Positions 6,489 to 21,712 of a DNA stretch of 24,000 bases are shown piece after piece. The notes under the pieces were generated by a model that did not search any database, was not told the origin of the DNA, and worked only from the letters and a program-made list of their open reading frames with translations. A program made the translations under genes and the position numbers. The first letter of the stretch is position 1. Each line of letters begins with the position of its first letter. The DNA is from Chitinivorax sp. PXF-14 (GTDB taxonomy: Bacteria > Pseudomonadota > Gammaproteobacteria > Burkholderiales > SCOH01). The stretch is taken from assembly GCF_040812015.1 (NCBI RefSeq), contig NZ_JBFNXJ010000004.1, positions 248,443 to 272,442 on the forward strand, written 5' to 3'.

Positions 6489-6711
6489 CGCCTGTTTACG
6501 GCCTGCCGCAAGCAGGGCAGGGCGATCAGCCGCGCATGAATCTTCCTTAAATGGGGCGTGCCGGCATGGCGGCTCGCCGATCTCACGGCAATCCGATATC
6601 CAGCCCGATGGGTCGCCGTGGGCACGGCGCTTCAATGCATCGGCCCGGATCAAGCCCGTCGATTCTGATAAAATTCCACCTCTTCCCTCCATCAACACCG
6701 TCGGGGCCGCA

Positions 6712-8232
6712 ATGACCGTGATTCGCCAGCAAGACTTCATCGATAGCATCTACGACAGCCTGCAGTTCATTTCCTACTACCATCCGATCGACTATATCCA
6801 GGCGCTCGGCGCGGCGTATGAACGCGAAGAATCCCCTGCCGCCAAGGATGCCATCGCTCAGATCCTGACCAATTCGCGTATGTGTGCCGAGGGGCATCGC
6901 CCGATCTGCCAGGACACCGGCATCGTCTGCGCCTTCGTCAAGGTCGGCATGGATGTGCGTTGGGAAGGCTGTACCATGTCCATTCAGGACATGGTCAATG
7001 AAGGCGTGCGCCGTGCCTACAACGATGCCGACAACAAGCTGCGTGCCTCGGTCCTCGCCGACCCGGCCGGCCTGCGCAAGAACACGCGCGACAACACGCC
7101 CGCCGTCGTACATTTCGACCTGGTGCCGGGTAACACCATCGAGGTGAAGATCGCGGCGAAGGGCGGCGGCTCGGAAAACAAGTCCAAGTTCGCGATGCTC
7201 AACCCGTCCGACAGCATCGTCGACTGGGTGCTCAAGACCGTACCGTTGATGGGCGCTGGCTGGTGCCCGCCGGGGATGCTTGGCATCGGCATCGGCGGCA
7301 CCGCGGAAAAGGCGATGATGCTGGCCAAGGAATCGTTGATGGAGCACATCGACATCCAGGAGCTGATCGCGCGCGGCCCGCAAAACCGTGTCGAGGAACT
7401 GCGCATCGAGCTGTTCGAGAAGGTCAACGCACTTGGCATCGGTGCGCAGGGCCTGGGCGGCCTGACGACGGTGCTCGACGTGAAGATTCTCGATTACCCG
7501 ACGCACGCTGCCAGCTTGCCGATCGCCATGATCCCGAACTGCGCCGCAACACGCCACGTTGAATTCTCGCTGGACGGCAGCGGCCCCGCCAAGCTCGATG
7601 CACCCAAGCTGGAAGACTGGCCGGCCGTGACCTGGTCGGCCTCGGCCTCGGCGCGCCGTGTCGATCTGAACCAGGTGACGGCAGAAGACGTCGCCAGCTG
7701 GAAGCCGGGCGAAACCCTGCTGCTGAACGGCAAGCTGCTGACGGGGCGCGACGCGGCCCACAAGCGCATGGTGGACATGCTCAACAAGGGCGAGAAGTTG
7801 CCGGTCGATTTCACCAACCGCTTTATCTATTATGTCGGCCCCGTCGATCCGGTACGCGACGAAGTGGTTGGCCCTGCTGGCCCGACGACGGCCACGCGCA
7901 TGGACAAGTTCACACGCCAGATGCTGGAGCAGACCGGCCTGCTGGGCATGGTGGGCAAGGCTGAGCGCGGCCCCGTTGCGATCGATGCGATCAAGGACAG
8001 CAAGGCGGTATACCTGATGGCCGTTGGTGGCGCGGCCTACCTGGTGTCGAAGGCGATCAAGGCGGCCAAGGTCGTCGCCTTTGAAGACCTGGGCATGGAG
8101 GCCATTTACGAGTTCGACATCGTCGACATGCCGGTGACGGTTGCCGTCGATAGCCAGGGTACGTCGGTCCACAAGACCGGCCCAGCTGAGTGGCAGGCCC
8201 GGATCGGCAAGATTCCCGTCGCCACAAACTGA
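6712..8232 (+). CDS. Class I (Fe-S dependent) fumarate hydratase, single-polypeptide ~506 aa form
   Basis: The sequence MTVIRQQDFIDSIYDSLQFISYYHP...CQDTGI...KGGGSENKSK...CPPG..GIGIGGTAE (alpha-type region) is followed by ...LLLNGKLLTGRDAAHKRM...IYYVGP...GPTTATRMD (beta-type region). The 115-codon upstream extension in the ORF track (from 6367) is Arg/Cys/Ser-rich nonsense and is rejected. Confidence 0.9.
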   Translation: MTVIRQQDFIDSIYDSLQFISYYHPIDYIQALGAAYEREESPAAKDAIAQILTNSRMCAEGHRPICQDTGIVCAFVKVGMDVRWEGCTMSIQDMVNEGVRRAYNDADNKLRASVLADPAGLRKNTRDNTPAVVHFDLVPGNTIEVKIAAKGGGSENKSKFAMLNPSDSIVDWVLKTVPLMGAGWCPPGMLGIGIGGTAEKAMMLAKESLMEHIDIQELIARGPQNRVEELRIELFEKVNALGIGAQGLGGLTTVLDVKILDYPTHAASLPIAMIPNCAATRHVEFSLDGSGPAKLDAPKLEDWPAVTWSASASARRVDLNQVTAEDVASWKPGETLLLNGKLLTGRDAAHKRMVDMLNKGEKLPVDFTNRFIYYVGPVDPVRDEVVGPAGPTTATRMDKFTRQMLEQTGLLGMVGKAERGPVAIDAIKDSKAVYLMAVGGAAYLVSKAIKAAKVVAFEDLGMEAIYEFDIVDMPVTVAVDSQGTSVHKTGPAEWQARIGKIPVATN

Positions 8233-8250
8233 TTTTCTTCCTTGTACCAG

Positions 8251-8281
8251 CAAAGGGGCCCATATGGGCCCCTTTGTTTTT
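8251..8281 (+). terminator. Rho-independent terminator of the fumarase gene
   Basis: CAAAGGGGCCCA-ta-TGGGCCCCTTTG is a perfect palindromic stem, followed by TTTTT. Confidence 0.85.
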
Positions 8282-8540
8282 GGGCGGATACACGCGAATC
8301 ATCGAAGTGCGGCTGTTCCAGCTGTATGCAAATGACAGGAAAACGTCACAGGGCGAGGGATGGGCGAAGTAAAACTTAGTAGGCCTCGGAACGTGACGAG
8401 GGCTGGGTAGGCGAAAAATTGGGCCGGGATTTTGATCTTGTGTTTGGTGATTTCTATTTTTATTACAAAGACTTATCGTGTTTCGAATACGCTGTCGTCA
8501 TTCCTCGATATGAAAAGTTCATTTTTTTTATGCATTCTTG

Positions 8541-8569
8541 TTGACACCTGAGAGTTAAAGCTCTAATCT
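8541..8569 (+). promoter_or_regulatory. Strong candidate sigma70 promoter of the secreted-protein gene (TTGACA-17 nt-TAATCT) with an A/T-rich UP-like tract upstream
   Basis: TTGACA at 8541-8546, a 17-nt spacer, TAATCT at 8564-8569. It is preceded by AAAAGTTCATTTTTTTTATGCATTC (8513-8538). It predicts a ~125-nt 5' UTR ending in the SD AGGAG (8689-8693). Confidence 0.5.
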
Positions 8570-8700
8570 AGAGTCCATGCACTAAACGTAACGGCGCGAA
8601 ACAAATCAAAAGCACTGCGCATGTGTCTGGTGCATGGTTTAGAGGGGTATCAGTTTTTCCAACTGTCATTAACTAAGTCTGATAAACGAGGAGTAAAACT

Positions 8701-9405
8701 ATGAAGAAGTCTCTGATTGCTGCTGCACTGGCCCTGGCATCCGTTCCTGCTTTCGCTCAAATGACCAACGTCGACGACGAAGTTCTGGGCACCCAAACCG
8801 GTCAAGAAGGTATCAGCATCGCACTGACCATCAAGGCTCACATCGATGACGTGATCTGGACTGACGATGGCAACTCCCTGCACTTCCAAGACATCGCGAT
8901 CGGTAGCGGCAGCACCATCGCTCGTCAAGTTGGCTTCGCAGTTGGTGGCAACACTCAGTACCTGAGCACTGGCACTGACTACTCCAACCCGGTTATCTTC
9001 CTGTCGCCGATCCGTATCGACGTTAAGAAGCTGGACCAAATCAACTTCACTATCGTTGATCAAGGCATGGGCACTGCACCTGCTGGCCTCGTAAACGTTA
9101 ACGGCACTGCTACCAACGTTCCGAACGGCAACACCCTGGCTCCGGGCTACGTTGTTAACTACGCTGACTACCTGAAGGCTTACGGCGCTAACGACGTTCT
9201 CGAAGGTGGTGCTGGCTCCAACGGCGCTCCTGGCTCGATCACTGGCACCAACTACGCTTCCGCAATCGTAATCGAAATGCCGCGTACTGTTGCTAGCTTC
9301 CGCGTCGGCGCGATCAAGGTAGGTAACGGTGCTTCGATGGGCTCCTTGGAAATGAAGGGTATGGACTTCTACGGTACCAAGGTTGCAATCTGGGGTCACC
9401 AGTAA
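8701..9405 (+). CDS. Secreted 234-aa protein with strong expression signals, Cys-free and G/N/T/V/I-rich (predicted beta-rich); family not recognised with certainty; putative cargo of the island
   Basis: AGGAG SD 7 nt upstream of ATG. Sec signal peptide MKKSLIAAALALASVPAFA|Q. Codon usage differs sharply from the neighbours (my count: Val GTT 14/20, Ala GCT 17/27, Gln CAA 7/9, Arg CGT 3/4). The gene has its own promoter and its own strong terminator. Confidence 0.8.
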   Translation: MKKSLIAAALALASVPAFAQMTNVDDEVLGTQTGQEGISIALTIKAHIDDVIWTDDGNSLHFQDIAIGSGSTIARQVGFAVGGNTQYLSTGTDYSNPVIFLSPIRIDVKKLDQINFTIVDQGMGTAPAGLVNVNGTATNVPNGNTLAPGYVVNYADYLKAYGANDVLEGGAGSNGAPGSITGTNYASAIVIEMPRTVASFRVGAIKVGNGASMGSLEMKGMDFYGTKVAIWGHQ

Positions 9406-9434
9406 TCAGTCTGCTGACAACGTCAGCCTGATTG

Positions 9435-9475
9435 AAAATCCACCACGGTTTTCCGTGGTGGATTTTTTATTTTTT
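9435..9475 (+). terminator. Strong rho-independent terminator/attenuator after the secreted-protein gene
   Basis: AAAATCCACCACGG-tttt-CCGTGGTGGATTTT forms a 14-bp perfect stem, followed by TTATTTTTT. Confidence 0.85.
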
Positions 9476-9705
9476 GCAGCTTGGCTAATTTATTTATTGA
9501 TTTACCGAAGATGACCACATCTTTTTGACTGAAAATCTCGCCGATTTGTCTGGTGTGAACGTGGTTTTGTTGTTTGTTTTTCTAGTATGCGATTGATATT
9601 GCTGGATATTTTGTCTGACAATAGTTTAAATGCATAAAAATTATTGAAAAAAAACCAAAACCCAGTAATATCCGATATGCGCGATGCATTGATTTGGAGT
9701 GGGGG

Positions 9706-10455
9706 ATGTTTCTTTCTATCGTAATGGCCTTGATGGCGATGACCAATGTCGGCCTGACTGACATCAAGGACAGCCCCGACGGCGTTTACCCTGTACAAAC
9801 CATTCCGGAATTCAGGGGGGGCGAACAGATCGCCATCCGTCCCTTGTCCGACCTCAAATACAGCGGCCTGGTGCATCAGGCATTCGACTACAGCTGTGGC
9901 TCGGCTGCGCTGACAACCGTTCTTAATTATTTCCTCAGCGAAAGCCTGCAAGAGTCGGAAGTCATGGAAGGCATGCTCAAGTTCGGCGAGAAGGACAAGA
10001 TCGTGCAGCGTCGTGGTTTCTCGCTGCTCGACATGAAACGCTATGTCGCATCGCTAGGCTACAAGAGCGCGGGCTTCAAGGCTGAATTGAGCGATCTGAT
10101 CGACCTGCGTCAACCGGGCATCGTTGGTATTCAGCATGCAGGTTTCAAGCATTTCGTGGTGTTCCGCGAGATCCGCGACGGCCATATCTATTTGGCAGAT
10201 CCTGCCCAGGGCAAGATCAGTTTTACGACATCCGAGTTTCTCAAGTTCTGGGATGGTAACGTGCTGTTCCTCATCTATCCCAAGGACGGCGTCGATATCA
10301 ACAATCGTCTGGAACTGACTGACAACGATTTGCGCGTGATGGACGAAGATCGCATCCGGCAATCGGTGTTGGCTACGCTACCGGCTTTTGGCCTGCCACT
10401 GGATCGTAAGGTCGATAAAGCCGCAGGCGGCACGGTTTATTACAAGCATAAATAG
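9706..10455 (+). CDS. Stand-alone C39-family cysteine peptidase (no ABC transporter fusion), N-terminal hydrophobic segment, probably periplasmic; FapD-like in architecture
   Basis: ATG 9706 follows GGAGTGGGGG. The motif Q58-x5-C64 (HQAFDYSCGSAALTTVLNYF) and H149...D165 (KHFVVFREIRDGHIYLADP) give a complete Gln/Cys/His/Asp set with a His-to-Asp spacing of 16, as in bacteriocin-processing C39 domains. The ORF ends after 249 aa, 14 bp before the next gene. Confidence 0.8.
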   Translation: MFLSIVMALMAMTNVGLTDIKDSPDGVYPVQTIPEFRGGEQIAIRPLSDLKYSGLVHQAFDYSCGSAALTTVLNYFLSESLQESEVMEGMLKFGEKDKIVQRRGFSLLDMKRYVASLGYKSAGFKAELSDLIDLRQPGIVGIQHAGFKHFVVFREIRDGHIYLADPAQGKISFTTSEFLKFWDGNVLFLIYPKDGVDINNRLELTDNDLRVMDEDRIRQSVLATLPAFGLPLDRKVDKAAGGTVYYKHK

Positions 10456-10469
10456 AATTCGATTACGGG

Positions 10470-11879
10470 GTGCTTCAATTGAACAAGCAAATCGTCGCGC
10501 TGGCCTTGGCGCTTATGGGTGGAACCGCAGTCGCAGCCGATGCGGATGCCGAGCCGAAACGCACACCGCTTGGTGTGAACCAGATCCAGGAGCCGGGGGA
10601 GTCCAAAAAACTGCAACCGGTAACGGACCTGCCGCAGGACAGCCGCCCGGCTGCCACGGCAGCTGAGGCACCCGCTGCTCCGGCGCAGGCCAGCCAGAAA
10701 AACGCCAAGAAGGGCAAAGGCGCCAAGACCGCAACGGCAAGCGCGGAAGCCGTAGCTGCACCCGCCGCGGCACAAAAGGCAGCGGAACCCAAGGCTGCCA
10801 CGGCGCAAGCGCCAGCCGAACCTAAACCAGTAGCAGAGACGAAGCCCGCTGTCGCGTCGACACCGGCCCCAGCTGCCGCACCAGCCAGCGCACCGCCGGC
10901 CAAGACCGCTGCGGCGCCTGCTGCCGGCGGCAAGGATACAACCGATGCGGCTCGCCAGGCACTGGCGAAGCAGGAAGGCGACAAGGACAACAAGAAGCTG
11001 GCTGAAGACGTGCTGACCTCGCAGGAAAAGAACTACACCCTGCTCAAGAAGGGCTCGTTCGATTTCAGCTATGACTTCAACTACAGCTATATCAGCGCGG
11101 ATCGCCTCGATTACGCCGTCGCCAGCAACAGCCAGAACCAGTTCAATATCTCCAAGTTCGGGCTGGAGCGTGACGCGACGCATACGGTGACCAACACGAT
11201 TACCGGCGACTATGGCCTGCGCGACAACCTGACCGTGGGTGTGTCAGTACCGCTGGTGTACAAGTACGACTCGTCCAACAATCTGAAGCGCTGGGTGACC
11301 GGTATCGGTGATCTCTCGCTCAACACGCGCTGGCAGCCTATCGAGGTGTCGCGCCGCATGCCGTCGCTGACCATCAACGGCTCGGTGCGTGCGCCGACCG
11401 GCATCAGCCCCTACGAGATCATCGCCGGCAAGGAATTGTCGACCGGTAGCGGCTATTGGGGCGGCACCGTCAGCGGCAACCTGTCCAAGGTCATCGACCC
11501 GGTCGTGCTGTTCGGCTCCCTGGGCTACTCGTACAACCTCAAGAAGACTGGCCTGAACCAGGTGCGCGGCAACGAAGGCCGCCGTATCTCCGCCATCGAG
11601 CCGGGCAGCGGCTTCAACGTGGGCGCCGGCTTCGGCTACGCCTTGTCGTACGATATCGCGCTGAACCTGTCGACCCAGGTGTCGTGGTCCAAGCAATCGC
11701 AGCTGATCTTCCATGATGGCACCTCGGTCATGCTCGACATGGAAACCTCGGGCTCGATGAACTTTGGCCTGACCTGGCGCCTCGACCCCAAATTCACGCT
11801 CGGCTTTACTGCCGCCATCGGCTTGACCAACGAGTCGCCTGACTTCTCGTTCGGCGTGAACATGCCGCTCAACTTCTAA
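10470..11879 (+). CDS. Outer-membrane beta-barrel protein (MetA-pathway/'transporter'-type barrel) preceded by a long Ala/Pro/Lys-rich linker and a charged helix; FapF-like architecture
   Basis: Signal peptide (LNKQIVALALALMGGTAVAA). Residues ~58-153 are almost only A/P/K/T/E/Q/S. A charged helix follows (DTTDAARQALAKQEGDKDNKKLAEDVLTSQEK). The ~275-aa C-terminal region has alternating beta-strand patterns, a TGIGDLSLNTRWQP motif and a terminal ...NMPLNF (C-terminal Phe, an OMP signature). The start could be GTG 10470 or TTG 10479. Confidence 0.7.
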   Translation: MLQLNKQIVALALALMGGTAVAADADAEPKRTPLGVNQIQEPGESKKLQPVTDLPQDSRPAATAAEAPAAPAQASQKNAKKGKGAKTATASAEAVAAPAAAQKAAEPKAATAQAPAEPKPVAETKPAVASTPAPAAAPASAPPAKTAAAPAAGGKDTTDAARQALAKQEGDKDNKKLAEDVLTSQEKNYTLLKKGSFDFSYDFNYSYISADRLDYAVASNSQNQFNISKFGLERDATHTVTNTITGDYGLRDNLTVGVSVPLVYKYDSSNNLKRWVTGIGDLSLNTRWQPIEVSRRMPSLTINGSVRAPTGISPYEIIAGKELSTGSGYWGGTVSGNLSKVIDPVVLFGSLGYSYNLKKTGLNQVRGNEGRRISAIEPGSGFNVGAGFGYALSYDIALNLSTQVSWSKQSQLIFHDGTSVMLDMETSGSMNFGLTWRLDPKFTLGFTAAIGLTNESPDFSFGVNMPLNF

Positions 11880-11896
11880 GCCGGGAGTTGAGTACG

Positions 11897-13513
11897 ATGG
11901 CGAAGTCAACATACAGCCTGCGCGGCAAGTGGCGCGAGGCGCTCGTAGCCTCTGTCCTGGCGGCGCTGAGCGCTCCGTCGCTGGCGGCGGTCGGGGAAAA
12001 CATCGGTGTCAGCCTGCGTGCCATGTCGCTGGGCAATGCCGTGACGGCCGACCCGGGCGGGATCGAGGCGGTACACTACAACCCGGCGGGGCTTACCCAC
12101 CTGACCGGCAAGCGGCATGATCTGACCTTGATGGCGGCACGTGTGCGCACGTTTGCCGAGTTCAATGCGCCGGAGGATTACAAGGGCATCTTCGGCTTCA
12201 AGGAAGACCCGGTCATCGGCCAGCGCAGCACCAGTGCCGATCACGCGTTCTACGTCCCGGGCATCGGCCTGGTGAAGCCCAAGGTGCCGGTCATCGTGGC
12301 GCCGATGAGCGGCTTCTCGTACAACGAGCCCGATTCTCGCTTCACCTTCGCGGACATGCTGTTTGCGCCGCAGCTGGTGGCCTACGACCGCTCGCGCCAA
12401 GGGGATGACGATCCGACCCGCTTCGGCGGTCGCACCATGGTGCTGCAGCGTTTCACCTATTTCGCGCCATCGATGGGCTACAAGGTCAGCGATACCTTGT
12501 CGCTGGGCGTGACGGCATCACTGTCGCACCATGCGCTGGCGCTCAATACCGATTTCCGGGCGCCGAACCAGCTGCTCGCGATGGTCGGGCAATTGCAGAA
12601 AGCGCTGTGCCCCGAGGGGGGCAACCCGATCGATACGGTATTGTTCGGCCTGTGTAGCAAGGGGCGGATGAACCCGTTCAACAAGATCGCCAACCTGGAG
12701 TTCCAGGTTTCCGTTCCTTCCGACCCGACTCTCTATCTGGGCTTTCTGTGGGAACCGAACGACTGGTTCGCGCTCGGCGGCGTGTACCAGAGCGAGAGCA
12801 AGATGCGCATGACGGGCAAGTACAAGTTCGAGTACGACCCCAATATCCGCGCCTTCTACGATGGCGTCAGCCATTCGGCTCTGGGCCCGATCATTCTGGC
12901 GGCGCTGGCGCAGCCGAGCTCGGTGCCGGAGAAGGAAGAGGGCAACGTGACCTTGACGCTGCCGTATCCGAAGCACATCCAGGTCGGTACCAAGTTCAAG
13001 TTCGGCCGTATCCAGTTGAACGGCGACGTCAGCTGGACCAACTGGAAGGCGTGGGAGAACTTCGTCTTCGACTTCGACCAGGAGCTGTCTGCGCTGCAGA
13101 TGGCCCGCCTGTTCGGTTACCCCGATGCGACCAAGCTGGTGATGCCGCGCGGTTACAAGAACACCTGGAGCGGCGGTATCGGCTTGCAGGTCGATGTGAC
13201 CAGCAAGCTGCGCACGCGCATGGGGGTGGAGTTCCGCAAGAGCTCGGTGCGGCCGGACCGCATCGATACCGTGGCACCGCTGTCGGATGACCGCTTGTAC
13301 GGGATCGGCTTCGGCTATTCGATCGACAAGTTCACCGATATCGACGCGACGATCGCCTTCCTGCATACGCGTTACACGGCGCAGGCCAATTCGAGTTGCA
13401 ACCTGAACTGCGACAACCTGCTGAACGTGGTGTACAACCCGTATGCGGGCCTGGATGTGACCACTGGCCTCAAGGTCGACGTGGGCGGCATCACCATCCG
13501 CAAGCGTTTCTAA
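11897..13513 (+). CDS. Outer-membrane transport protein of the OMPP1/FadL/TodX family, unusually long (538 aa)
   Basis: GGGAG at 11883-11887, 9 nt before ATG 11897. Signal peptide ...LAALSAPSLA|AVGEN. There is an N-terminal hatch-like segment with the family motif (SLGNAVTADPGGIEAVHYNPAGLTHL). Amphipathic beta strands run throughout and the protein ends ...GGITIRKRF. Two Cys pairs are present (ALCPEGG...FGLCSKG and SSCNLNCDN). Confidence 0.75.
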   Translation: MAKSTYSLRGKWREALVASVLAALSAPSLAAVGENIGVSLRAMSLGNAVTADPGGIEAVHYNPAGLTHLTGKRHDLTLMAARVRTFAEFNAPEDYKGIFGFKEDPVIGQRSTSADHAFYVPGIGLVKPKVPVIVAPMSGFSYNEPDSRFTFADMLFAPQLVAYDRSRQGDDDPTRFGGRTMVLQRFTYFAPSMGYKVSDTLSLGVTASLSHHALALNTDFRAPNQLLAMVGQLQKALCPEGGNPIDTVLFGLCSKGRMNPFNKIANLEFQVSVPSDPTLYLGFLWEPNDWFALGGVYQSESKMRMTGKYKFEYDPNIRAFYDGVSHSALGPIILAALAQPSSVPEKEEGNVTLTLPYPKHIQVGTKFKFGRIQLNGDVSWTNWKAWENFVFDFDQELSALQMARLFGYPDATKLVMPRGYKNTWSGGIGLQVDVTSKLRTRMGVEFRKSSVRPDRIDTVAPLSDDRLYGIGFGYSIDKFTDIDATIAFLHTRYTAQANSSCNLNCDNLLNVVYNPYAGLDVTTGLKVDVGGITIRKRF

Positions 13514-13533
13514 GCCGCCCTGGCGGCAGCGCA

Positions 13534-13567
13534 AACAAGAAAGCCGGCAATTGCCGGCTTTCTTGTT
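13534..13567. terminator. Bidirectional terminator between the convergent FadL-like and emrB genes
   Basis: Perfect 17+17 bp inverted repeat AACAAGAAAGCCGGCAA|TTGCCGGCTTTCTTGTT. It is flanked by A-rich and T-rich runs on either side, so it can act on both strands. Confidence 0.8.
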
Positions 13568-13584
13568 GCTTGCACCTGTTTGCT

Positions 13585-15168
13585 TCAGTGCAAATCCACG
13601 CTCTGCGAGTAGCGGTTGTGACGCATCAGCGCCAGCAGCGGCAGGGCGCAGGCCAGGATGACGCCGAACCACAGGAACAGCTTGGCAAACGCCAGCATCG
13701 TTACCTGTTTCTCCACCTGCATATTCATCACCGCATAGGCCTTGATCTGCGCCATGGCATCGGGAATGCCGCGCCCGATCAGTATCTGCTTGAGCTGGGC
13801 CAGCCTGCCCATGGCCGCGGGATCGTTGCCGGCCAGGTGTTCGACCAGGTGCAGGCGCTCGCTCTGCTGCAAGTGGCCCAGGCTGGTGGCCGCCGTGGCG
13901 ATGCCCACCGAGCCGCCGAGCATGCGCGTCAGGTTGTAGAGGCCGCTTGCGCCGGGAATCTCGATCGCCTCGACATTGGACATGGCGAGGTTGTTCAGCG
14001 GCACGAACACCATCCCCAGCCCCAGCCCGCGTAATACCAGCGGCCAGAAGAAGTCGCCGGCACCGCTTTCGGTGGTGAAGTGGTTGTGCTGCCACATCGA
14101 GTAACAGAACAGCACCGTGCCCAGCACGATGAGCACCTTCGGCGATACGCCGCGCGCCACCAGCTTGCTGGTGGTGGCCAGCGCGATGGCCGTGGCGATG
14201 GCCGAGGGCAGGATGAACATGCCGGTCTGGAATGCGTTGAATCCCATCAGGGACTGCGCGTAAACCGGGAACATGAAGATCGTGCAGTACAGCGCGGCCC
14301 CGGTCAGGAACGCATACAGCAGGCCGGCGCTGAACTGGCCATCGCGCATGATGCGCAGGTTCACGATCGGGTGCTCGGTCTCCAGCTCGTGGATCACGAA
14401 GGTGTAAAGCGACACGAAGCTGACGATCACCAGCGTGATGATTTCGCCGGACTGGAACCAGTCTTGCTTCTCGCCGCGCTCGAGCATGGTCTGCAGCGTG
14501 CCGATGCCGACCGCGAGCAGGATCAGCCCGATATAGTCGATGCGCTCGGCCTTTTGCTGCAGGCCCGAGTCCGGCACGTAGATCAGCGTCAAGAGCAGCG
14601 CGACGATGCCGAATGGCAGGTTGATGTAGAAGATCCACGGCCAGGAATAGGCATCGGTGAGCCAGCCGCCGATCGTCGGGCCGAGCGCCGGGCCCGCCAT
14701 GATGCCCATGCCGAAGATGGCCATCGCCGTGCCCATCTCCTTCTGCGGGAAGACCTCGAAGATGGTCGCCTGCGCGGTGGCCAGCAGGCCGCCGCCGCCG
14801 ATGCCCTGAATGATGCGCCACATCACCAGCGACTCGAGCGTGGTGGCGGCGCCGCAGGCCATCGATGCGATCGTGAACAGGAGGATGGACAGCGCGAAGT
14901 AGTTGCGCCGCCCGAACTGGCTCGACAGCCAGCCCGAGATCGGCAGCACGATCACGTTGGCGACGACATAACCGGTCGACACCCAGGCGATCTCGTCGAG
15001 CGTCGCGCCGAGCGTGCCCATCATGTGGGGCACGGCGACGTTGACGATGCTGGTGTCGAGCAGTTCGAGCACCGAGGCAAGCGTCACCGTCATCGCGATG
15101 ATGAAGCGGTTGGCGTGGATGGCCGCGGGCGAGGTCGAGCGCGACAGCCCTGGCAGCATGGGGCGCAT
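13585..15168 (-). CDS. emrB: DHA2-family (EmrB/QacA) MFS multidrug efflux permease, 14-TM type
   Basis: 527 aa. The N-terminus is ...IIAMTVTLASVLELLDTSIVNVAVPHMMGTLGA...WVSTGYVVANVIVLPISGWLSSQFGRRN, typical of EmrB. It follows the adaptor gene with a 9-bp gap. Confidence 0.85.
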   Translation of the reverse strand: MRPMLPGLSRSTSPAAIHANRFIIAMTVTLASVLELLDTSIVNVAVPHMMGTLGATLDEIAWVSTGYVVANVIVLPISGWLSSQFGRRNYFALSILLFTIASMACGAATTLESLVMWRIIQGIGGGGLLATAQATIFEVFPQKEMGTAMAIFGMGIMAGPALGPTIGGWLTDAYSWPWIFYINLPFGIVALLLTLIYVPDSGLQQKAERIDYIGLILLAVGIGTLQTMLERGEKQDWFQSGEIITLVIVSFVSLYTFVIHELETEHPIVNLRIMRDGQFSAGLLYAFLTGAALYCTIFMFPVYAQSLMGFNAFQTGMFILPSAIATAIALATTSKLVARGVSPKVLIVLGTVLFCYSMWQHNHFTTESGAGDFFWPLVLRGLGLGMVFVPLNNLAMSNVEAIEIPGASGLYNLTRMLGGSVGIATAATSLGHLQQSERLHLVEHLAGNDPAAMGRLAQLKQILIGRGIPDAMAQIKAYAVMNMQVEKQVTMLAFAKLFLWFGVILACALPLLALMRHNRYSQSVDLH

Positions 15169-15177
15169 GGGGCTTCC

Positions 15178-16257
15178 TTAGCTGGCTTTGATGGTGGCGA
15201 ACACGCTCATGCCCGGGCGCAGCGGATGTTGCGCATCGTCACGCTTGGCCAAGCGGATTTTCACCGGGATGCGCTGCACGACCTTGGTGAAATTGCCCGT
15301 GGCGTTGTCCGGTGGCAGCAGCGTGAACTTGGCGCCGGTGGCGGCGCTGATCGATTCCACCTTGCCGTTGAAGGTCACGCCGGGGTAGGCATCGACTTCG
15401 ATTTCCGCCTCGGCGCCATTCCTGACCTTGCCGACATCGGTTTCCTTGACGTTGGCGACCACCCAGATGTCGTCGTCGGCAACGAGGCTCATCAGTGTCT
15501 GGCCCGGCTGCACCAGTTGGCCGACTTCGACGTTTTTCTTGCTGACGAGGCCGTTGCTCGGTGCCCTGAGGCCGGTATCGGCGAGCTGGATCGCCGCGAG
15601 GTCGCGCACCGCGCGTGCCGCGTCGACCTTGGAGCGTGCCGAGCGCAAGGCGGCCGAGTACACGGTCACCTGTTCGCCGGCCGCGCTGGCCGAGTCACGC
15701 GAGGTCTTGAGTTGCGCTTCGGCCGTTCGCACGGTGGTTTCCGCCGCGTCGAGCTGTTGCTGCGACGCCATCGCCTGGGCCGCGAGCGACTTGATGCGCT
15801 CGAGATCGTTCCTGGCCTTCTGCAGATTGGCTTCCGCCTGCTTGATGGTGGCGCTGGCCGCCGAGGCGTTGGCCTGGGCCCAGTTGATTTGCGCCACGGC
15901 CTGGCCGACATCGTTGCCCTGCTTGTTGCCGGTATTCGAGAGCGCAATGGCGAGCTCGGCCTCGGCCTGCAGCAGCTTGGCCTTGTAGTCGCGATCGTCG
16001 ATCTTGACCAGCTCGGAATCCGTCCTGACCAGCTCATTGTCCGAGACATTGACGGCGCGCACATAGCCCGCCACGCGCGCGGCGATCGGCACGATGCGGC
16101 CTTCGACCTGCGCGTTGTCGGTGCTCACATAGTGATGGCCGTACCACCAGCGGTAGCCGAGGCCGCCGGCAATGCCGATCGCCATGATCATCAGGACCAG
16201 GCGGGCCTTGCCCTGTTTTGCCGGTGCAGCGTTGCCGGCCGGGGTTTCTGTCGTCAT
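15178..16257 (-). CDS. emrA: HlyD-family efflux periplasmic adaptor (EmrA-like)
   Basis: It has an N-terminal TM anchor (RLVLMIMAIGIAGGLGYRWWY), a long Ala/Gln-rich coiled-coil hairpin, and a beta-barrel C-terminus (RPGMSVFATIKAS). The gene sits between the TetR and EmrB genes. Confidence 0.85.
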   Translation of the reverse strand: MTTETPAGNAAPAKQGKARLVLMIMAIGIAGGLGYRWWYGHHYVSTDNAQVEGRIVPIAARVAGYVRAVNVSDNELVRTDSELVKIDDRDYKAKLLQAEAELAIALSNTGNKQGNDVGQAVAQINWAQANASAASATIKQAEANLQKARNDLERIKSLAAQAMASQQQLDAAETTVRTAEAQLKTSRDSASAAGEQVTVYSAALRSARSKVDAARAVRDLAAIQLADTGLRAPSNGLVSKKNVEVGQLVQPGQTLMSLVADDDIWVVANVKETDVGKVRNGAEAEIEVDAYPGVTFNGKVESISAATGAKFTLLPPDNATGNFTKVVQRIPVKIRLAKRDDAQHPLRPGMSVFATIKAS

Positions 16258-16910
16258 GCTTGGTTCTCCGTGTTATCAGGTGCGGCCTGAATGCCTTTCA
16301 GCACGACACTCAGGTGAAAGCGGGTGAATTCGCCCAGGTCCATGGCCTCCTGGCCATAGGGGCTGAAGGTGTGGTGCCAGATGGTCTGCAGGATCACCGG
16401 CGAAATGATTTCCTTGATGGCGAAGCCGAGATGCATCGGGCGGAACTCGCCGGCCTGGATGCCGCGCTCGAGCACTTCGCCGAATACCTTGCGCACCCGC
16501 GTCATCACTTCATTCAGATAGAAGTTGGCCAGGTCGGGGAAATTGCCCGCCTCGGCGACCACGAGCTTGGAGATGCCGTTGGCGGGTGACTCGACGATCA
16601 GCTCGACCCATTTGTTCATCAGATGGGTCAGCATCTCGGTGGCCGACAGCTTGGAATCGGCGACGAACTCTTCCGCCATCTGGATCGACGGTATCAGCGT
16701 CTCGCGAATGGCTGCCTTGAACAGCTCTTCCTTGCTCGAGAAATACAGGTAAAGCGTGCCCTTGGTGACGCCGGCCGCGCGGGCGACCTCGTCGAGTTTG
16801 GTGGCGGCGAAGCCCTTCTGGATGAACAGGGCCAGCGCGGCACTGGTGATTTCCGAGGGGCGCGCATCCTTACGGCGTTGCCAGCGTGGGCTGCTACATG
16901 GAGTGTTCAT
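16254..16910 (-). CDS. TetR/AcrR-family transcriptional repressor, first gene of the efflux operon
   Basis: N-terminal HTH: RPSEITSAALALFIQKGFAATKLDEVARAAGVTKGTLYLYFSSKEELF. Its stop overlaps the emrA start by 4 bp (ATGA). Confidence 0.85.
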   Translation of the reverse strand: MNTPCSSPRWQRRKDARPSEITSAALALFIQKGFAATKLDEVARAAGVTKGTLYLYFSSKEELFKAAIRETLIPSIQMAEEFVADSKLSATEMLTHLMNKWVELIVESPANGISKLVVAEAGNFPDLANFYLNEVMTRVRKVFGEVLERGIQAGEFRPMHLGFAIKEIISPVILQTIWHHTFSPYGQEAMDLGEFTRFHLSVVLKGIQAAPDNTENQA

Positions 16911-19052: not shown

Positions 19053-19365
19053 TTCTCCTTGTTGCTGGTGTCGGCCCGATGCTTGATATGAGTCAAGAAT
19101 GATTGGGCGACTCGGTCTATGATTAAAAAATGTCCCGTCATCGACGTGATCTGCTGATCGCCACGTGATCCGATGCCCGCCCGCCCGCCAGGCACTCGAT
19201 CCGATTCACAATAACACCCGCCGCAGCGGCGGCACCTGATTGCTCCCCGCGCCTGGTCTCGGGCGTTGCCTATTGGGACTGGTTTCTAGCCTTCTCGCGA
19301 CATGTGCAAGGCATGCCCCTGCCTTGGCGTGTCGATCGGTCACTTGAGTTCTGGAGGTGTTATCC

Positions 19366-19881
19366 ATGTCCTACGATCAGCAATTCCCGCTTGCGCTGTA
19401 CAAGGCCAATCTCGGCTTGGCGGCGGATCTCTGCAATGTGATGCTCGAAAGCCTGCAGCGCTTTGGCTCGGTCGAGCTCGAAGCGCTTGCCGATGTCGAT
19501 GTCGCCTCGCTGGCCAATGCGAGTTCCGCCATGCTGCAGCGCGACCCGAGCGGTTTCCTCAAGCAGCAGGGCGAGGTGTTACAGACCCTGATGGGCCAGT
19601 GGAACGATCTAGCCCGTGTCTCCAATCATAATAACGCCGTCGTCGCGCAGGACTTGCAGCGAGCCGTCACCAACTGGCAGTCGGCCGTGCTGCAGGCGCT
19701 GGGCCAGCCCAAGGGGGCGGCAAACCTGGGCAACCCGCTGGCCGATGCCTTCAATGCCATGGCCAATGCGTCGGGCGAAATGTACCAGGCTTTCGTGAAA
19801 TCCACCCAGGATCTCGCTGGTGCGGCCGACGCCGGTATCAAGGCTGCAGCCAAGCCCGCCGCGCGCAGCAAGGCTGCCTGA
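19366..19881 (+). CDS. Phasin-like PHA granule-associated protein (putative)
   Basis: GGAGG lies upstream of ATG 19366. The 171-aa protein is Ala/Gln/Leu-rich, predicted all-helical, with a Lys/Ala-rich tail (AAKPAARSKAA). It sits immediately upstream of phaC. The assignment rests on composition and context, not on a recognised motif. Confidence 0.5.
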   Translation: MSYDQQFPLALYKANLGLAADLCNVMLESLQRFGSVELEALADVDVASLANASSAMLQRDPSGFLKQQGEVLQTLMGQWNDLARVSNHNNAVVAQDLQRAVTNWQSAVLQALGQPKGAANLGNPLADAFNAMANASGEMYQAFVKSTQDLAGAADAGIKAAAKPAARSKAA

Positions 19882-19903
19882 GCTTGCTCCGCCATCCTCG
19901 ATG

Positions 19904-19936
19904 AACTTGGCCGCCTTTTCCGGGCGGCCAAGTTTT
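19904..19936 (+). terminator. Rho-independent terminator after the phasin-like gene
   Basis: AACTTGGCCGCC-ttttccg-GGCGGCCAAGTT forms a 12-bp perfect stem running into TTTT. Confidence 0.6.
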
Positions 19937-19987
19937 GTGTGAACCCCGCCATGGCCCTGGCGGCGCAACCCGGAGTGCAGACCCGCG

Positions 19988-21712
19988 ATGGACACCGCAA
20001 AACAGACCGAAGACAGCCTGCTCGATTTCGATCGCCTGCTGCATGTGTGGATCAGCCGCTACACCAGCGGCATCTCGCCGGCCGCGCTGGCCCAGGCCTT
20101 TTTCGACTGGGCGATTCATCTTGGCCTGTCGCCGGCGAAGCAGCATCAACTGGTCGACAAGGCGGTGTTCCAGTGGATGCGCCTGCTCGACTATTGCGCA
20201 CATGCCCCGGCCGCCAGCGGCCAGCGCGCGATCGAGCCGCTGGTGCAGGATAACCGCTTCGAGAGCGGCGAATGGCAGGCCTGGCCTTACAACGCGGTCT
20301 ACCAGTCGTTTCTGCTCGGCCAGCAGTGGTGGCATTATGCGACCACCGATGTGCGCGGCGTGACGGATCATCACGAGCAGGTGGTGAATTTCACCATGCG
20401 CCAGCTGCTCGACATCTTTTCGCCATCGAATTTCTTTGCCAGCAACCCGGAAGTGATCCAGGCCACCGGCCGCGAGCATGGGCAGAACCTGCTGCGCGGC
20501 TGGCAGAACTGGCTCGACGACGTGCAGCGCCACCAGCACCGTGGCAAGCCTGCCGGTGCCGACCTGTTTCGCGTCGGGCACGAGGTGGCCGTCACGCCGG
20601 GCAAGGTGGTGTTCCGCAACCGGCTGATCGAGCTGATCCAGTATGCGCCGAGCACCGACACGGTGGCCGCCGAGCCCATTCTCATCGTGCCGTCGTGGAT
20701 CATGAAGTACTACATCCTCGATCTGTCGCCGCACAACTCGCTCGTACGCTTTCTCGTCGAACAGGGCCATACCGTGTTCATGCTGTCGTGGAAGAACCCC
20801 GACGCCGGCGACCGCAACCTGATGATGGACGACTACCTCAAGCTCGGTGTGCTCGCCGCGCTCGACCATGTCAGCAGCGCCTTGCCGGGGCAGCGCATCA
20901 ATGCTGCGGGCTACTGCCTCGGCGGCACGCTGCTCGCGATTGCCGCCGCCTGGCTGGCGGGCCGCGACGATCAGCGCCTCAACACGGTGACGCTGTTCGC
21001 GGCGCAGGTCGATTTCGACGAGCCGGGCGAGCTGTCGCTGTTCATCGAGGAGAGCCAGCTCGCCTTCCTCGAGGATGTCATGTGGGACAAGGGCTATCTG
21101 CGTGGCGGGCTGATGCACGGCGCGTTCGAGCTGCTCAACTCGCGCGACCTGTTCTGGTCGCGGCTGACGCGCGACTATCTGCTCGGCACGCGGCTGCCGC
21201 TCAACGACCTGATGGCCTGGAATGCCGACGCCACGCGCATGCCCTATCGCATGCACACCGAATACCTGCGCCGGCTGTACGGCAACAACGAGCTGGCCAC
21301 CGGGCAATATCACATCGATGGGAAAACTGTGGCGCTCACCGACATCCGCGCGCCGATCTGCGCCGTCGGCACGACCAAGGACCACGTGTCGCCATGGAAA
21401 TCGGTCTACAAGATACGCATGCTGTCCGATGCCGATGTCACCTTCGTGCTGGTCAACGGTGGCCACAACGCCGGCATTGTCAGCGAACCGGGCCACGCGC
21501 ACCGCGTGCACCAGGTGCGCACGCAGCTCGCGCAGGATAAATACCTGTCGCCCGACGAGTGGCAGCGCTCCACCCCGGTGCAGGAGGGATCGTGGTGGCC
21601 GACCTGGGATGGCTGGCTCAGGCAACACAACGGCGCGGGCACCGTGCCGGCGCGGCAGCCCGACGAGACCGGGCTTGGCGACGCGCCGGGCAGCTACGTG
21701 CTGCTGGCCTGA
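19988..21712 (+). CDS. phaC: Class I poly(3-hydroxyalkanoate) synthase PhaC
   Basis: 574 aa. Lipase-box-like G-x-C-x-G (INAAGYCLGGTLLA) and an alpha/beta hydrolase core are present, with conserved downstream Asp/His regions (...TTKDHVSPW..., ...VNGGHNAGIV...). The N-terminal region is typical of class I synthases. Confidence 0.9.
   Translation: MDTAKQTEDSLLDFDRLLHVWISRYTSGISPAALAQAFFDWAIHLGLSPAKQHQLVDKAVFQWMRLLDYCAHAPAASGQRAIEPLVQDNRFESGEWQAWPYNAVYQSFLLGQQWWHYATTDVRGVTDHHEQVVNFTMRQLLDIFSPSNFFASNPEVIQATGREHGQNLLRGWQNWLDDVQRHQHRGKPAGADLFRVGHEVAVTPGKVVFRNRLIELIQYAPSTDTVAAEPILIVPSWIMKYYILDLSPHNSLVRFLVEQGHTVFMLSWKNPDAGDRNLMMDDYLKLGVLAALDHVSSALPGQRINAAGYCLGGTLLAIAAAWLAGRDDQRLNTVTLFAAQVDFDEPGELSLFIEESQLAFLEDVMWDKGYLRGGLMHGAFELLNSRDLFWSRLTRDYLLGTRLPLNDLMAWNADATRMPYRMHTEYLRRLYGNNELATGQYHIDGKTVALTDIRAPICAVGTTKDHVSPWKSVYKIRMLSDADVTFVLVNGGHNAGIVSEPGHAHRVHQVRTQLAQDKYLSPDEWQRSTPVQEGSWWPTWDGWLRQHNGAGTVPARQPDETGLGDAPGSYVLLA

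Follow-up and report, generated by a model that had tools for sequence, protein, structure and literature searches.

The subject of this work is a four-gene island, filA-filB-filC-filD, carried by a 24,000-nt stretch of the Chitinivorax sp. PXF-14 genome (contig NZ_JBFNXJ010000004.1, positions 248,443 to 272,442; this whole stretch is called the window and is numbered from its first nucleotide). With a probability of roughly 0.7, as judged from sequence comparisons, the island encodes a Sec-dependent pathway, related to the Fap system of Pseudomonas, which secretes and assembles a pilus-like surface filament. Its four open reading frames (ORFs), all of them on the + strand and between terminators where an initial annotation of the sequence had placed them, are filA (8701-9405, 234 aa), filB (9706-10455, 249 aa from ATG), filC (10470-11879, 469 aa) and filD (11897-13513, 538 aa from ATG). 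Public databases annotate the corresponding proteins as DUF6160 family protein, C39 family peptidase, transporter and OmpP1/FadL family transporter, respectively. By its relationships the island can be classed as a minimal four-gene locus of the Fil type, a kind of locus that is already named and poorly characterised. The initial annotation had seen in it an undescribed Sec-dependent secretion/assembly module; the functional half of that statement is supported by the homology of FilB and FilC to FapD and FapF, by the wide co-occurrence of the four genes and by the structure of a filament-forming relative of FilA (PDB 9XFV), while the word "undescribed" has to be withdrawn in view of the NCBIfam FilA-D models and of the Fil fimbriae of Acinetobacter.

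The cargo family and the conserved gene set

The evidence for a filament comes from the family to which the first product belongs. FilA matches Pfam DUF6160 with its N-terminal part (1e-16, 61 bits versus a cut-off of 27), and only with that part the NCBIfam FilA model (7e-11, below the narrow cut-off of this model). DUF6160 proteins are conserved at their N-terminus and at their C-terminus (S-x-G-S…G-T-K-V-x-I-W-G-H), with a variable middle, the total length ranging from 100 to 725 aa. The family profile hit a single solved structure, PDB 9XFV (E=2e-30), which is titled "bacteria pilus (like)" and is made up of 25 chains, all of the same protein of 173 residues. The ORF found directly upstream of the filBCD homologues of Ideonella margarita (locus L007) encodes a protein 98.8% identical to it. 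When the clade of the window FilA and the clade of the 9XFV protein were compared profile to profile, the alignment extended from the signal peptide to the last residue, with a probability of 99.8% and E=4e-28 over 172 columns. The two proteins thus have in common the family, the N-terminal strands, the C-terminal W.H end and a gene adjoining filBCD homologues (in Ideonella for 9XFV), but they differ in the number of mature residues, 199 in the window FilA against 173, and their middle regions are unrelated. These relationships suggest that the DUF6160 cargo family forms pilus-like filaments, a property that would extend to the window FilA by homology. No paper describing 9XFV was found in a limited literature search.

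As for the protein itself, FilA is devoid of cysteine, as noted initially, and its abundant residues are G, A, V, I and T. The putative Sec signal peptide (8701..8757, + strand; residues 1-19, MKKSLIAAALALASVPAFA) ends in AFA|Q, and the AxA site occupies the same place (-19 to -17) throughout the DUF6160 family. The predicted mature protein (8806..9402, + strand; residues 36-234) consists of conserved N-terminal strands, a variable middle and a C-terminal domain ending in KVAIWGHQ. The AlphaFold2 (AF2) model of FilA had an overall predicted local distance difference test (pLDDT) score of 55.6, values of 70-85 being reached only at residues 37-67 and 188-233.

Proteins of this kind have been met before in Acinetobacter. 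In Acinetobacter sp. Tol 5, Edman degradation identified FilA, which is counted among the fibre proteins of the cell surface (PMC3498257, PMC11784438), and the same strain grown on triacylglycerol exhibited abundant long curved fibres that were deduced to be Fil fimbriae (PMC3498257). In A. baumannii, FilF (filF being A1S_0695) was found to be induced in pellicles (PMC3203104). The island shares with the Acinetobacter Fil system (FilA-F; NCBIfam NF050077-NF050080) a DUF6160 subunit, the C39 peptidase FilB, FilC and the FadL-family protein FilD, encoded in the same order, and the four window proteins score best on the FilA-D models (7e-11, 3e-71, 1e-78 and 7e-139). It differs from it in that the match of FilA is limited to the N-terminal part and in that FilC carries an extra Ala/Pro/Lys linker of ~105 residues. 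Because all scores lie below the cut-offs of the respective models, the window proteins are to be regarded as distant relatives of Fil, FapD and FapF.

FilC was built as initially described, that is, with an Ala/Pro/Lys linker and a barrel. Its parts are a signal peptide (residues 1-22), the linker (~61-165), a conserved helix (~158-195) and the barrel, which displays a PTG motif at 309-311; the linker segment (residues 61-165, window 10650-10964) is made up of Ala, Pro and Lys to 67%. The Pfam match to Phenol_MetA_deg was weak (1.5e-4), and the protein was recognised by the NCBIfam models FilC (1e-78) and FapF (8.5e-26) as well as in the FapF crystal structures (PDB 5O65/5O67, E=9e-20, residues 169-468). 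The linker is restricted to Chitinivorax and a few other loci (L005, L006, L025), whereas most FilC homologues have 334-363 aa and pass directly from the signal peptide to the conserved helix. Where FapF has its heptad-rich N-terminal coiled coil (DADIETLKQELLELKQRYEVQQKALAVLEQRV), FilC presents a Pro/Ala/Lys stretch, as judged by reading the sequences.

The second barrel, FilD, is a FadL/TodX-type protein, in agreement with the initial assignment. It covers the full Pfam Toluene_X model (2e-45, 155 bits versus a cut-off of 29.7), matches the NCBIfam FilD model for OmpP1/FadL family transporters (7e-139) and the P. aeruginosa FadL homologue 3DWO (7e-6), and contains, besides a signal peptide, the N-terminal NPA hatch motif of the FadL/TodX proteins in ...VHYNPAGLTHL. 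Unlike FadL, it is encoded together with a C39 peptidase and a FapF-like barrel, and it is ~100 residues longer. A weak local match to PorV2 (1.2e-4) provides a precedent for a protein-handling role, PorV being the FadL-fold shuttle of type IX secretion.

The association of these genes was followed in other bacteria by searching a single genome of each species with the FilB peptidase alignment, which retrieved FilB relatives in at least 596 species genomes, those of Acinetobacter among them. The 80 best loci and five others were then compared by calling their ORFs and scoring them with hidden Markov models (HMMs) of the four window proteins. FilB, FilC and FilD were encoded directly one after the other in 77 of the 79 loci with enough sequence (for one of the two exceptions the ORF calling was at fault), and a DUF6160 gene lay at most 5.5 kb away in 53 of 69 loci, so that the conserved co-occurrence on which the initial annotation depended was found. 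FilD is an almost obligatory partner of FilB and FilC, and the recurrence of the same order in about 80 other loci takes the gene set beyond chance. The taxa represented include Pseudomonas, Ectopseudomonas, Alcanivorax, Marinobacter, Oleispira, Macondimonas, Kistimonas, Ideonella, Roseateles, Massilia and Janthinobacterium.

The putative leader segment, the FilB peptidase and the Fap parallel

Between the signal peptide and the predicted mature part of FilA lies a segment of 16 residues (8758..8805, + strand; residues 20-35, QMTNVDDEVLGTQTGQ) which, as read from the alignments, has the spacing of double-glycine leaders and would be cut by FilB after G34-Q35. In the 43 unique DUF6160 family members that were aligned, the distance from the AxA site to an invariant G-Q is exactly 16 residues, and the sequence x-G-(I/V)-(S/T)-(I/V) follows. 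Counted from the proposed cut, the family has M/L at -15, M/L/I at -12, D at -10 (100%), L/M at -7 (100%), V/I at -4 (93%), G at -2 (100%) and G at +2 (100%); position -1 is Q in the 43 members and R in eleven further ORFs. The residues G34, Q35 and G37 of the window FilA are invariant in the family alignments, and its leader has V-12, L-7 and G-2, with Q at both -4 and -1. AF2 predicted a helix at residues 26-33.

The peptidases LahT150 and ComA are known to recognise Leu-12, Leu-7, Val-4 and Gly-2 of their leaders (PMC6363468). The Fil leader shares the recognition spacing (-12, -7, -4 and -2) of the leaders processed by PCAT1, ComA and LahT, but it sits behind a Sec signal peptide instead of at the N-terminus, and most members have Q or R at -1. 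At -2/-1, paralogues show G-R, G-A or G-G, as in ...AVRGG|DGISF and ...DVRGA|GLGVG. In addition, the deposited 9XFV chain opens with DGVSIAGD…, which corresponds to +1 after G-Q, and runs to the true C-terminus. Removal of the leader by FilB is proposed because of the motif, the G-G/G-A paralogues and this subunit N-terminus, and the mature window FilA is predicted to begin at E36. Among 7072 ORFs of Fil loci the motif occurred almost only in cargo genes, the remainder being wrong-frame ORFs, and in the 24-kb window it was present in FilA only.

Several cargo genes may coexist in one locus. In betaproteobacterial Fil loci (L007, L010, L027, L034 and L078), three to five leader-bearing genes are found upstream of filB, and their products fall into four size classes, namely the major subunit and proteins of ~115 mature residues ending in MWAH, ~220 ending in NTGKGP and ~250 ending in RLRPSN/IRFKR. 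Going by their sequences, the four classes look like major and minor subunits. Ideonella loci have three to four leader-bearing genes, against one in the Chitinivorax window.

The enzyme that would act on the leader had been identified initially as a stand-alone C39 peptidase, and FilB is indeed a member of Pfam Peptidase_C39 (8e-20, 71.5 bits versus a cut-off of 22). It also matched NCBIfam FilB (3e-71, 240 bits against the cut-off of 475 of this narrow "exception" model) and NCBIfam FapD (7e-37, under the equivalog cut-off of 330). In an alignment of 20 homologues, the residues of the catalytic site (Q58, C64, H149 and D165) were invariant. The core of the AF2 model (pLDDT 86-96) found its best Foldseek matches in the peptidase domains of PCAT1, LahT150 and ComA, with template modelling (TM) scores of 0.73-0.78, and among the double-glycine peptidase domains on which it superposes is LahT150 in complex with its leader. 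FilB has the fold and the catalytic residues of these enzymes, but it differs from them by facing the periplasm and by the lack of a fused ABC transporter: the protein stands alone with 249 aa and a single N-terminal hydrophobic helix, and none of the four products of the island is an ABC transporter. Its N-terminus (MFLSIVMALMAMTNVG) is hydrophobic, with an AF2 helix at residues 3-22 and no obvious signal-peptidase site, and the model indicates that it is probably an uncleaved membrane anchor holding the catalytic domain in the periplasm. Two initial statements need to be qualified in this respect. The presence of signal peptides in all four products is doubtful in the case of FilB, whose helix resembles an anchor; as to the claim that the island lacks both an ATPase and an inner-membrane component, the first part stands and the second is doubtful because of that same anchor-like N-terminus.

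Close homologues of FilB have in common a C-terminal tail (residues ~205-249, window 10320-10455; LELTDxDLRxxD) that is absent in FapD, and the spacing of this tail resembles that of the cargo leader, minus the glycines. The idea that the tail (LELTDNDLRVMDED) is a leader-like auto-inhibitory pseudo-substrate was considered and set aside as speculative, being without support because the AF2 pLDDT of the tail is 43-60.

The system to which FilB and FilC lead is Pseudomonas Fap. Both systems have a C39 peptidase that stands alone, faces the periplasm and possesses a catalytic Cys (FapD/FilB), a homologous barrel with a plug helix and a PTG motif (the FapF trimer, PDB 5O65, and FilC) and Sec-delivered substrates, with no ATPase. 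The Fap-like logic with a non-Fap cargo that had been perceived initially can even be strengthened, since FilB and FilC are true homologues of FapD and FapF (7e-37 and 8.5e-26; PDB 9e-20) and not mere analogues. The two systems also differ in several points: the cargo is a DUF6160 pilus-like subunit and not a repeat amyloid of the FapB/FapC kind, the genes for FapA, FapB, FapC and FapE are absent from the island, FilC is devoid of the coiled coil that FapF has at its N-terminus, FilB has in comparison with FapD an N-terminal anchor and a tail of ~45 residues, and Fil has gained a FadL-type barrel.

FapD resides in the periplasm, and secretion through FapF depends on the catalytic Cys of this peptidase (PMC5557850), while FapE is the sole Fap protein whose N-terminus was missing from cells (PMC5557850, PMC6173800). 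In 80 Fap loci, collected with the FapF sequence as query, FapE reads …FKPIELKDSEMAELRGR|YVMPGRIISFGIVM after its signal peptide. This motif is conserved in 49 unique sequences, with L/M/I at -12, E at -8, M/L at -7, L at -4, G at -2 and R at -1. Its presence in FapE is in keeping with those published findings on FapD and FapE. FapE was discarded as a full-length DUF6160 relative: the DUF6160 HMM found zero matches in the 5193 ORFs of the 80 Fap loci, and an HMM of the 16 leader columns hit FapE at E ~5-15 only. In the absence of full-length similarity, what links FapE to FilA is a short motif and its position, and homology is not implied. Co-localised pairs of fapD and fapF homologues outside Fap have been noted, with no description of a Fil-type system (PMC6173800), and a limited literature search found no paper linking Fil with Fap.

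Organisation and surroundings of the island

The four same-strand genes are delimited on the left by the terminator of the upstream neighbour, a class I fumarase gene according to Pfam, and on the right by a hairpin shared with a convergent gene; these boundaries and the intergenic gaps of 14 bp (filB-filC) and 17 bp (filC-filD) were all read in the sequence, in accordance with the initial description. The fumarase terminator (8251..8281, + strand) is a hairpin of the form caaaggggccc-atat-gggcccctttg followed by a T-run. The perfect hairpin between filD and the convergent emrB (13534..13567, strand undefined) is, from its sequence, a probable bidirectional terminator.

The first gene was initially credited with its own promoter, a strong Shine-Dalgarno sequence and a terminator, and sequences that would serve as all three were recovered. 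The probable filA promoter (8520..8595, + strand) is composed of a T-run, a -35 element TTGACA (8541-8546), a 17-nt spacer and a -10 element TAATCT (8564-8569). This block is near-identical in Chitinivorax sp. B, while the remainder of the spacer upstream of filA has diverged between the two, and a conserved block inside a diverged spacer lends phylogenetic support to the assignment; its omission from the list of a consensus scan is explained by the -10 element, which has just 3/6 matches. A perfect palindrome, CTCTAATCTAGAG (8561-8573), which Chitinivorax sp. B has in identical form, overlaps the putative -10 element and may serve some regulator as an operator. The Shine-Dalgarno sequence GAGGAG (8688-8693, + strand) lies 7 nt 5' of the filA ATG and is likewise kept in Chitinivorax sp. 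B, and downstream of the gene there is a strong intrinsic terminator on the + strand (hairpin at 9434-9467 with a 15-bp stem, T-run to 9477).

A possible promoter of filBCD (9593..9671, + strand) is AT-rich and contains three overlapping sigma-70-like sites. These were the only 3 sites in a scan of 7 kb, against a mean of 2.3 in shuffled sequence, which makes them weak evidence for a promoter. Taken with the terminator after filA, the promoter-like sites at 9593-9671 suggest that filA is transcribed by itself and filBCD as a second unit. As regards the start of filB, the mechanical ORF opens at TTG 9694, whereas the homologues all begin at ATG 9706. An Rfam-type search of the filA leader and of the filA-filB spacer revealed no riboswitch or known RNA, the matches being to terminator hairpins and below the gathering threshold. 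The G+C content across 8200-10000 (filA upstream region, filA and filB start) is 45-52%, compared with 60-66% in the genes on either side. Horizontal acquisition could account for the drop, as could AT-rich regulatory DNA combined with a highly expressed gene.

Downstream of the island, on the - strand (13585-16910), are genes for an EmrB-type major facilitator superfamily (MFS) pump, an EmrA/HlyD adaptor and a TetR regulator, and at 19357-21712 those for a phasin and the PhaC polyhydroxyalkanoate (PHA) synthase; both groups are unrelated to the island. Long antisense ORFs encoding Arg/Gly/His-rich products (- strand 12518-14821, 767 aa; 6583-8253; and others) were rejected as genes. With lengths of up to 767 aa, they oppose filD, emrB and the fumarase gene and are typical artefacts of G+C-rich DNA.

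The surroundings of Fil loci vary among taxa. Both Chitinivorax species have four genes only, beside the fumarase gene, and one or two additional downstream genes are present in Pseudomonas and Alcanivorax loci. When equivalents of FilE and FilF were sought among the genes 3' of filD in these two genera, no Fil-family match was obtained; the fifth gene of Pseudomonas loci gave faint DUF4124 and clear MalM Pfam matches. In P. aeruginosa PAO1, the counterpart of the Fil locus is presumably PA1761-PA1765, by synteny. Ectopseudomonas mendocina-type loci (L001-L003, 3821-9255) feature two large genes for MalT/LuxR-type regulators directly upstream of the DUF6160 gene, and their conserved neighbours are cysH, a HAD-family hydrolase gene, a chorismate-binding (pabB-like) gene and prpB/prpC. 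In Massilia, the gene after filD has an MshE-type domain binding cyclic di-GMP (4.7e-16; L033:13963-14751, with the same position in L049, L054 and L077), a sequence feature that hints at control of the Massilia Fil system by this messenger. Marinobacter and Tamilnaduibacter loci (L021, L026, L057 and others; ~13420-14500) have filBCD followed by a gene for a lipoprotein of 330-360 aa (...GCQ..., EGYFTWVDEQGRVRYSPIP), and no leader-bearing gene was detected in them within 10 kb.

Proposed pathway, alternative readings and implications

In the pathway that is proposed, filA would be transcribed at a high level from its own promoter up to its own terminator, with filBCD forming a second, tightly packed unit. 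Pre-FilA would cross the inner membrane via Sec, losing the signal peptide (residues 1-19), and FilB, either membrane-anchored or free in the periplasm, would bind the leader (residues 20-35) and cut after G34-Q35. FilC, as a FapF-type barrel with a plug helix, would export the subunit over the outer membrane, by homology with FapF, whose role in the export of Fap subunits was shown by experiment. Outside the cell, FilA would polymerise into a pilus-like fibre, filaments having been shown for its homologue 9XFV and reported for the Acinetobacter Fil fimbriae. The island has no ATPase, and the driving force would be provided by extracellular folding and polymerisation, like in Fap and curli. 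Pfam and NCBIfam searches of the four products and their neighbours disclosed no member of the chaperone-usher, type IV (prepilin peptidase and ATPase) or curli (CsgG, CsgE, CsgF) families.

A number of observations weigh against this pathway. The link between FilA and 9XFV rests on profiles, because the direct similarity of the single sequences is confined to the C-terminal last 36 residues (BLAST 8e-7, phmmer 0.29), and a structure search with the FilA model, with its overall pLDDT of 55.6, returned no fold match. In the leader, the Chitinivorax clade deviates from the family by having Q, not V/I, at -4; the Q at -1 is unlike the G/A/S of known C39 substrates; and the start of the 9XFV chain may result from the omission of a disordered N-terminus, not from cleavage. 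The substrate of FapD, which is the closest studied peptidase, is still unidentified (PMC5557850, PMC6173800). The role of FilD is a guess, this protein being conceivable as an anchor or assembly platform or as a channel for hydrophobic molecules. No gene for FilE or FilF, both part of the Acinetobacter locus, exists in the 24-kb window, where filD is followed by the terminator and the convergent emrB. Finally, 16 loci of Marinobacter and relatives have no cargo gene nearby; presumably they encode the cargo elsewhere.

Some of these points would fit an unlikely alternative in which FilB spares FilA, the N-terminal segment being retained, for example as a flexible secretion signal or assembly strand, and FilB serves instead as a chaperone or has FilC or FilD as its substrate. 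For Fap, it has been put forward as one option that FapD cleaves FapF (PMC5557850), and the long linker of the Chitinivorax FilC is a possible target. The -1 residue (Q/R) lies outside the known C39 specificity, and the 9XFV N-terminus could reflect disorder and not cleavage. Against it, most FilC proteins have no linker, and the leader positions are those bound by LahT150 and ComA, with canonical G-G/G-A at the same place in paralogues. The fixed length of 16 residues from the signal-peptidase site to G-Q and the 9XFV chain, which starts exactly at +1 and is complete at its C-terminus, also speak for leader removal.

The initial annotation had offered as its alternative a locus for the uptake of hydrophobic substrates with a secreted solubilising or activator protein. 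In such a locus FilD and FilC would import lipids, alkanes or aromatics, FilA would be the secreted solubiliser or activator and fibres would be secondary. Uptake of such compounds is indeed what both barrel families (FadL; COG4313/Phenol_MetA_deg) are known for, FilD retains the NPA hatch motif and FilC the PTG motif (PMC6173800), and the gene set is frequent among degraders of oil and lipids (Alcanivorax, Marinobacter, Oleispira, Macondimonas, Ectopseudomonas oleovorans/mendocina). The abundance of the fibres deduced as Fil fimbriae on triacylglycerol-grown Tol 5 cells (PMC3498257) and the Marinobacter loci, which hold filBCD with no cargo gene nearby, point in the same direction. FilC, however, is much nearer to FapF (8.5e-26; PDB 9e-20), its Pfam match to the uptake family reaching just 1.5e-4, and it hit no COG4313 structure in the PDB search. 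A leader-cleaving peptidase and a leader-bearing cargo have no obvious use in uptake, the cargo homologue is a 25-chain filament, and catabolic genes are absent from the flanks of the island within the window. As the primary reading, uptake ranks lower: a pure uptake locus is improbable, given the closeness of FilC to FapF and the presence of a leader peptidase alongside filament subunits that bear leaders. The enrichment of the gene set among degraders of oil and lipids, together with the triacylglycerol observation, nevertheless allows for some connection with hydrophobic substrates or surfaces, and uptake may be an added role.

The least probable reading is that of a true Fap-type functional amyloid with a divergent subunit forming FapC-like cross-beta fibrils, which would account for the FapD and FapF homologues and for a secreted, Cys-free and Gly/Ala/Val/Thr-rich FilA, but which is excluded because the cargo type differs (FilA has none of the imperfect or Q/N-rich repeats of FapB/FapC, matches no Fap subunit model in NCBIfam and has no DUF6160 counterpart in the 80 Fap loci) and because FapA, FapB, FapC and FapE are missing from the island, the FadL-type gene being moreover near-universal in Fil loci and absent from Fap.

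The Fap-related filament pathway thus preferred would give a functional assignment to four proteins that are publicly annotated only by family name or as a transporter. It also offers a concrete candidate cleavage site for a class of periplasmic C39 peptidases for which a substrate has been sought since the FapF/FapD work of 2017, and it ties to a protein-secretion module a FadL-type barrel, a kind of protein that normally imports hydrophobic molecules. As far as the limited literature search could reveal, neither the reading of the leader as a C39 substrate nor the parallel with FapE has been described. The occurrence of Fil fibres at hydrophobic interfaces, that is, in pellicles and on triacylglycerol-grown cells, adds to the interest of the system, as does the fact that FilF of A. 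baumannii is a vaccine candidate.

A wider reading can be entertained tentatively, although it is more doubtful than the assignment of the island itself. In this scenario, Fil and Fap would be two forms of one unrecognised and widespread outer-membrane pathway, in which each secreted subunit bears a double-glycine-type leader after its Sec signal peptide, a C39 peptidase facing the periplasm (FilB or FapD) takes this leader off, and the removal licenses export via a FapF-type barrel. If this were true, the carriers of the leader would be the major and minor subunits of Fil, plus FapE in Fap, and the substrate and site of FapD would be named, cleavage taking place after G-R of FapE. Fibres would then be built by a route apart from the chaperone-usher, type IV, curli and type V pathways, and FilD would be a new obligatory component.

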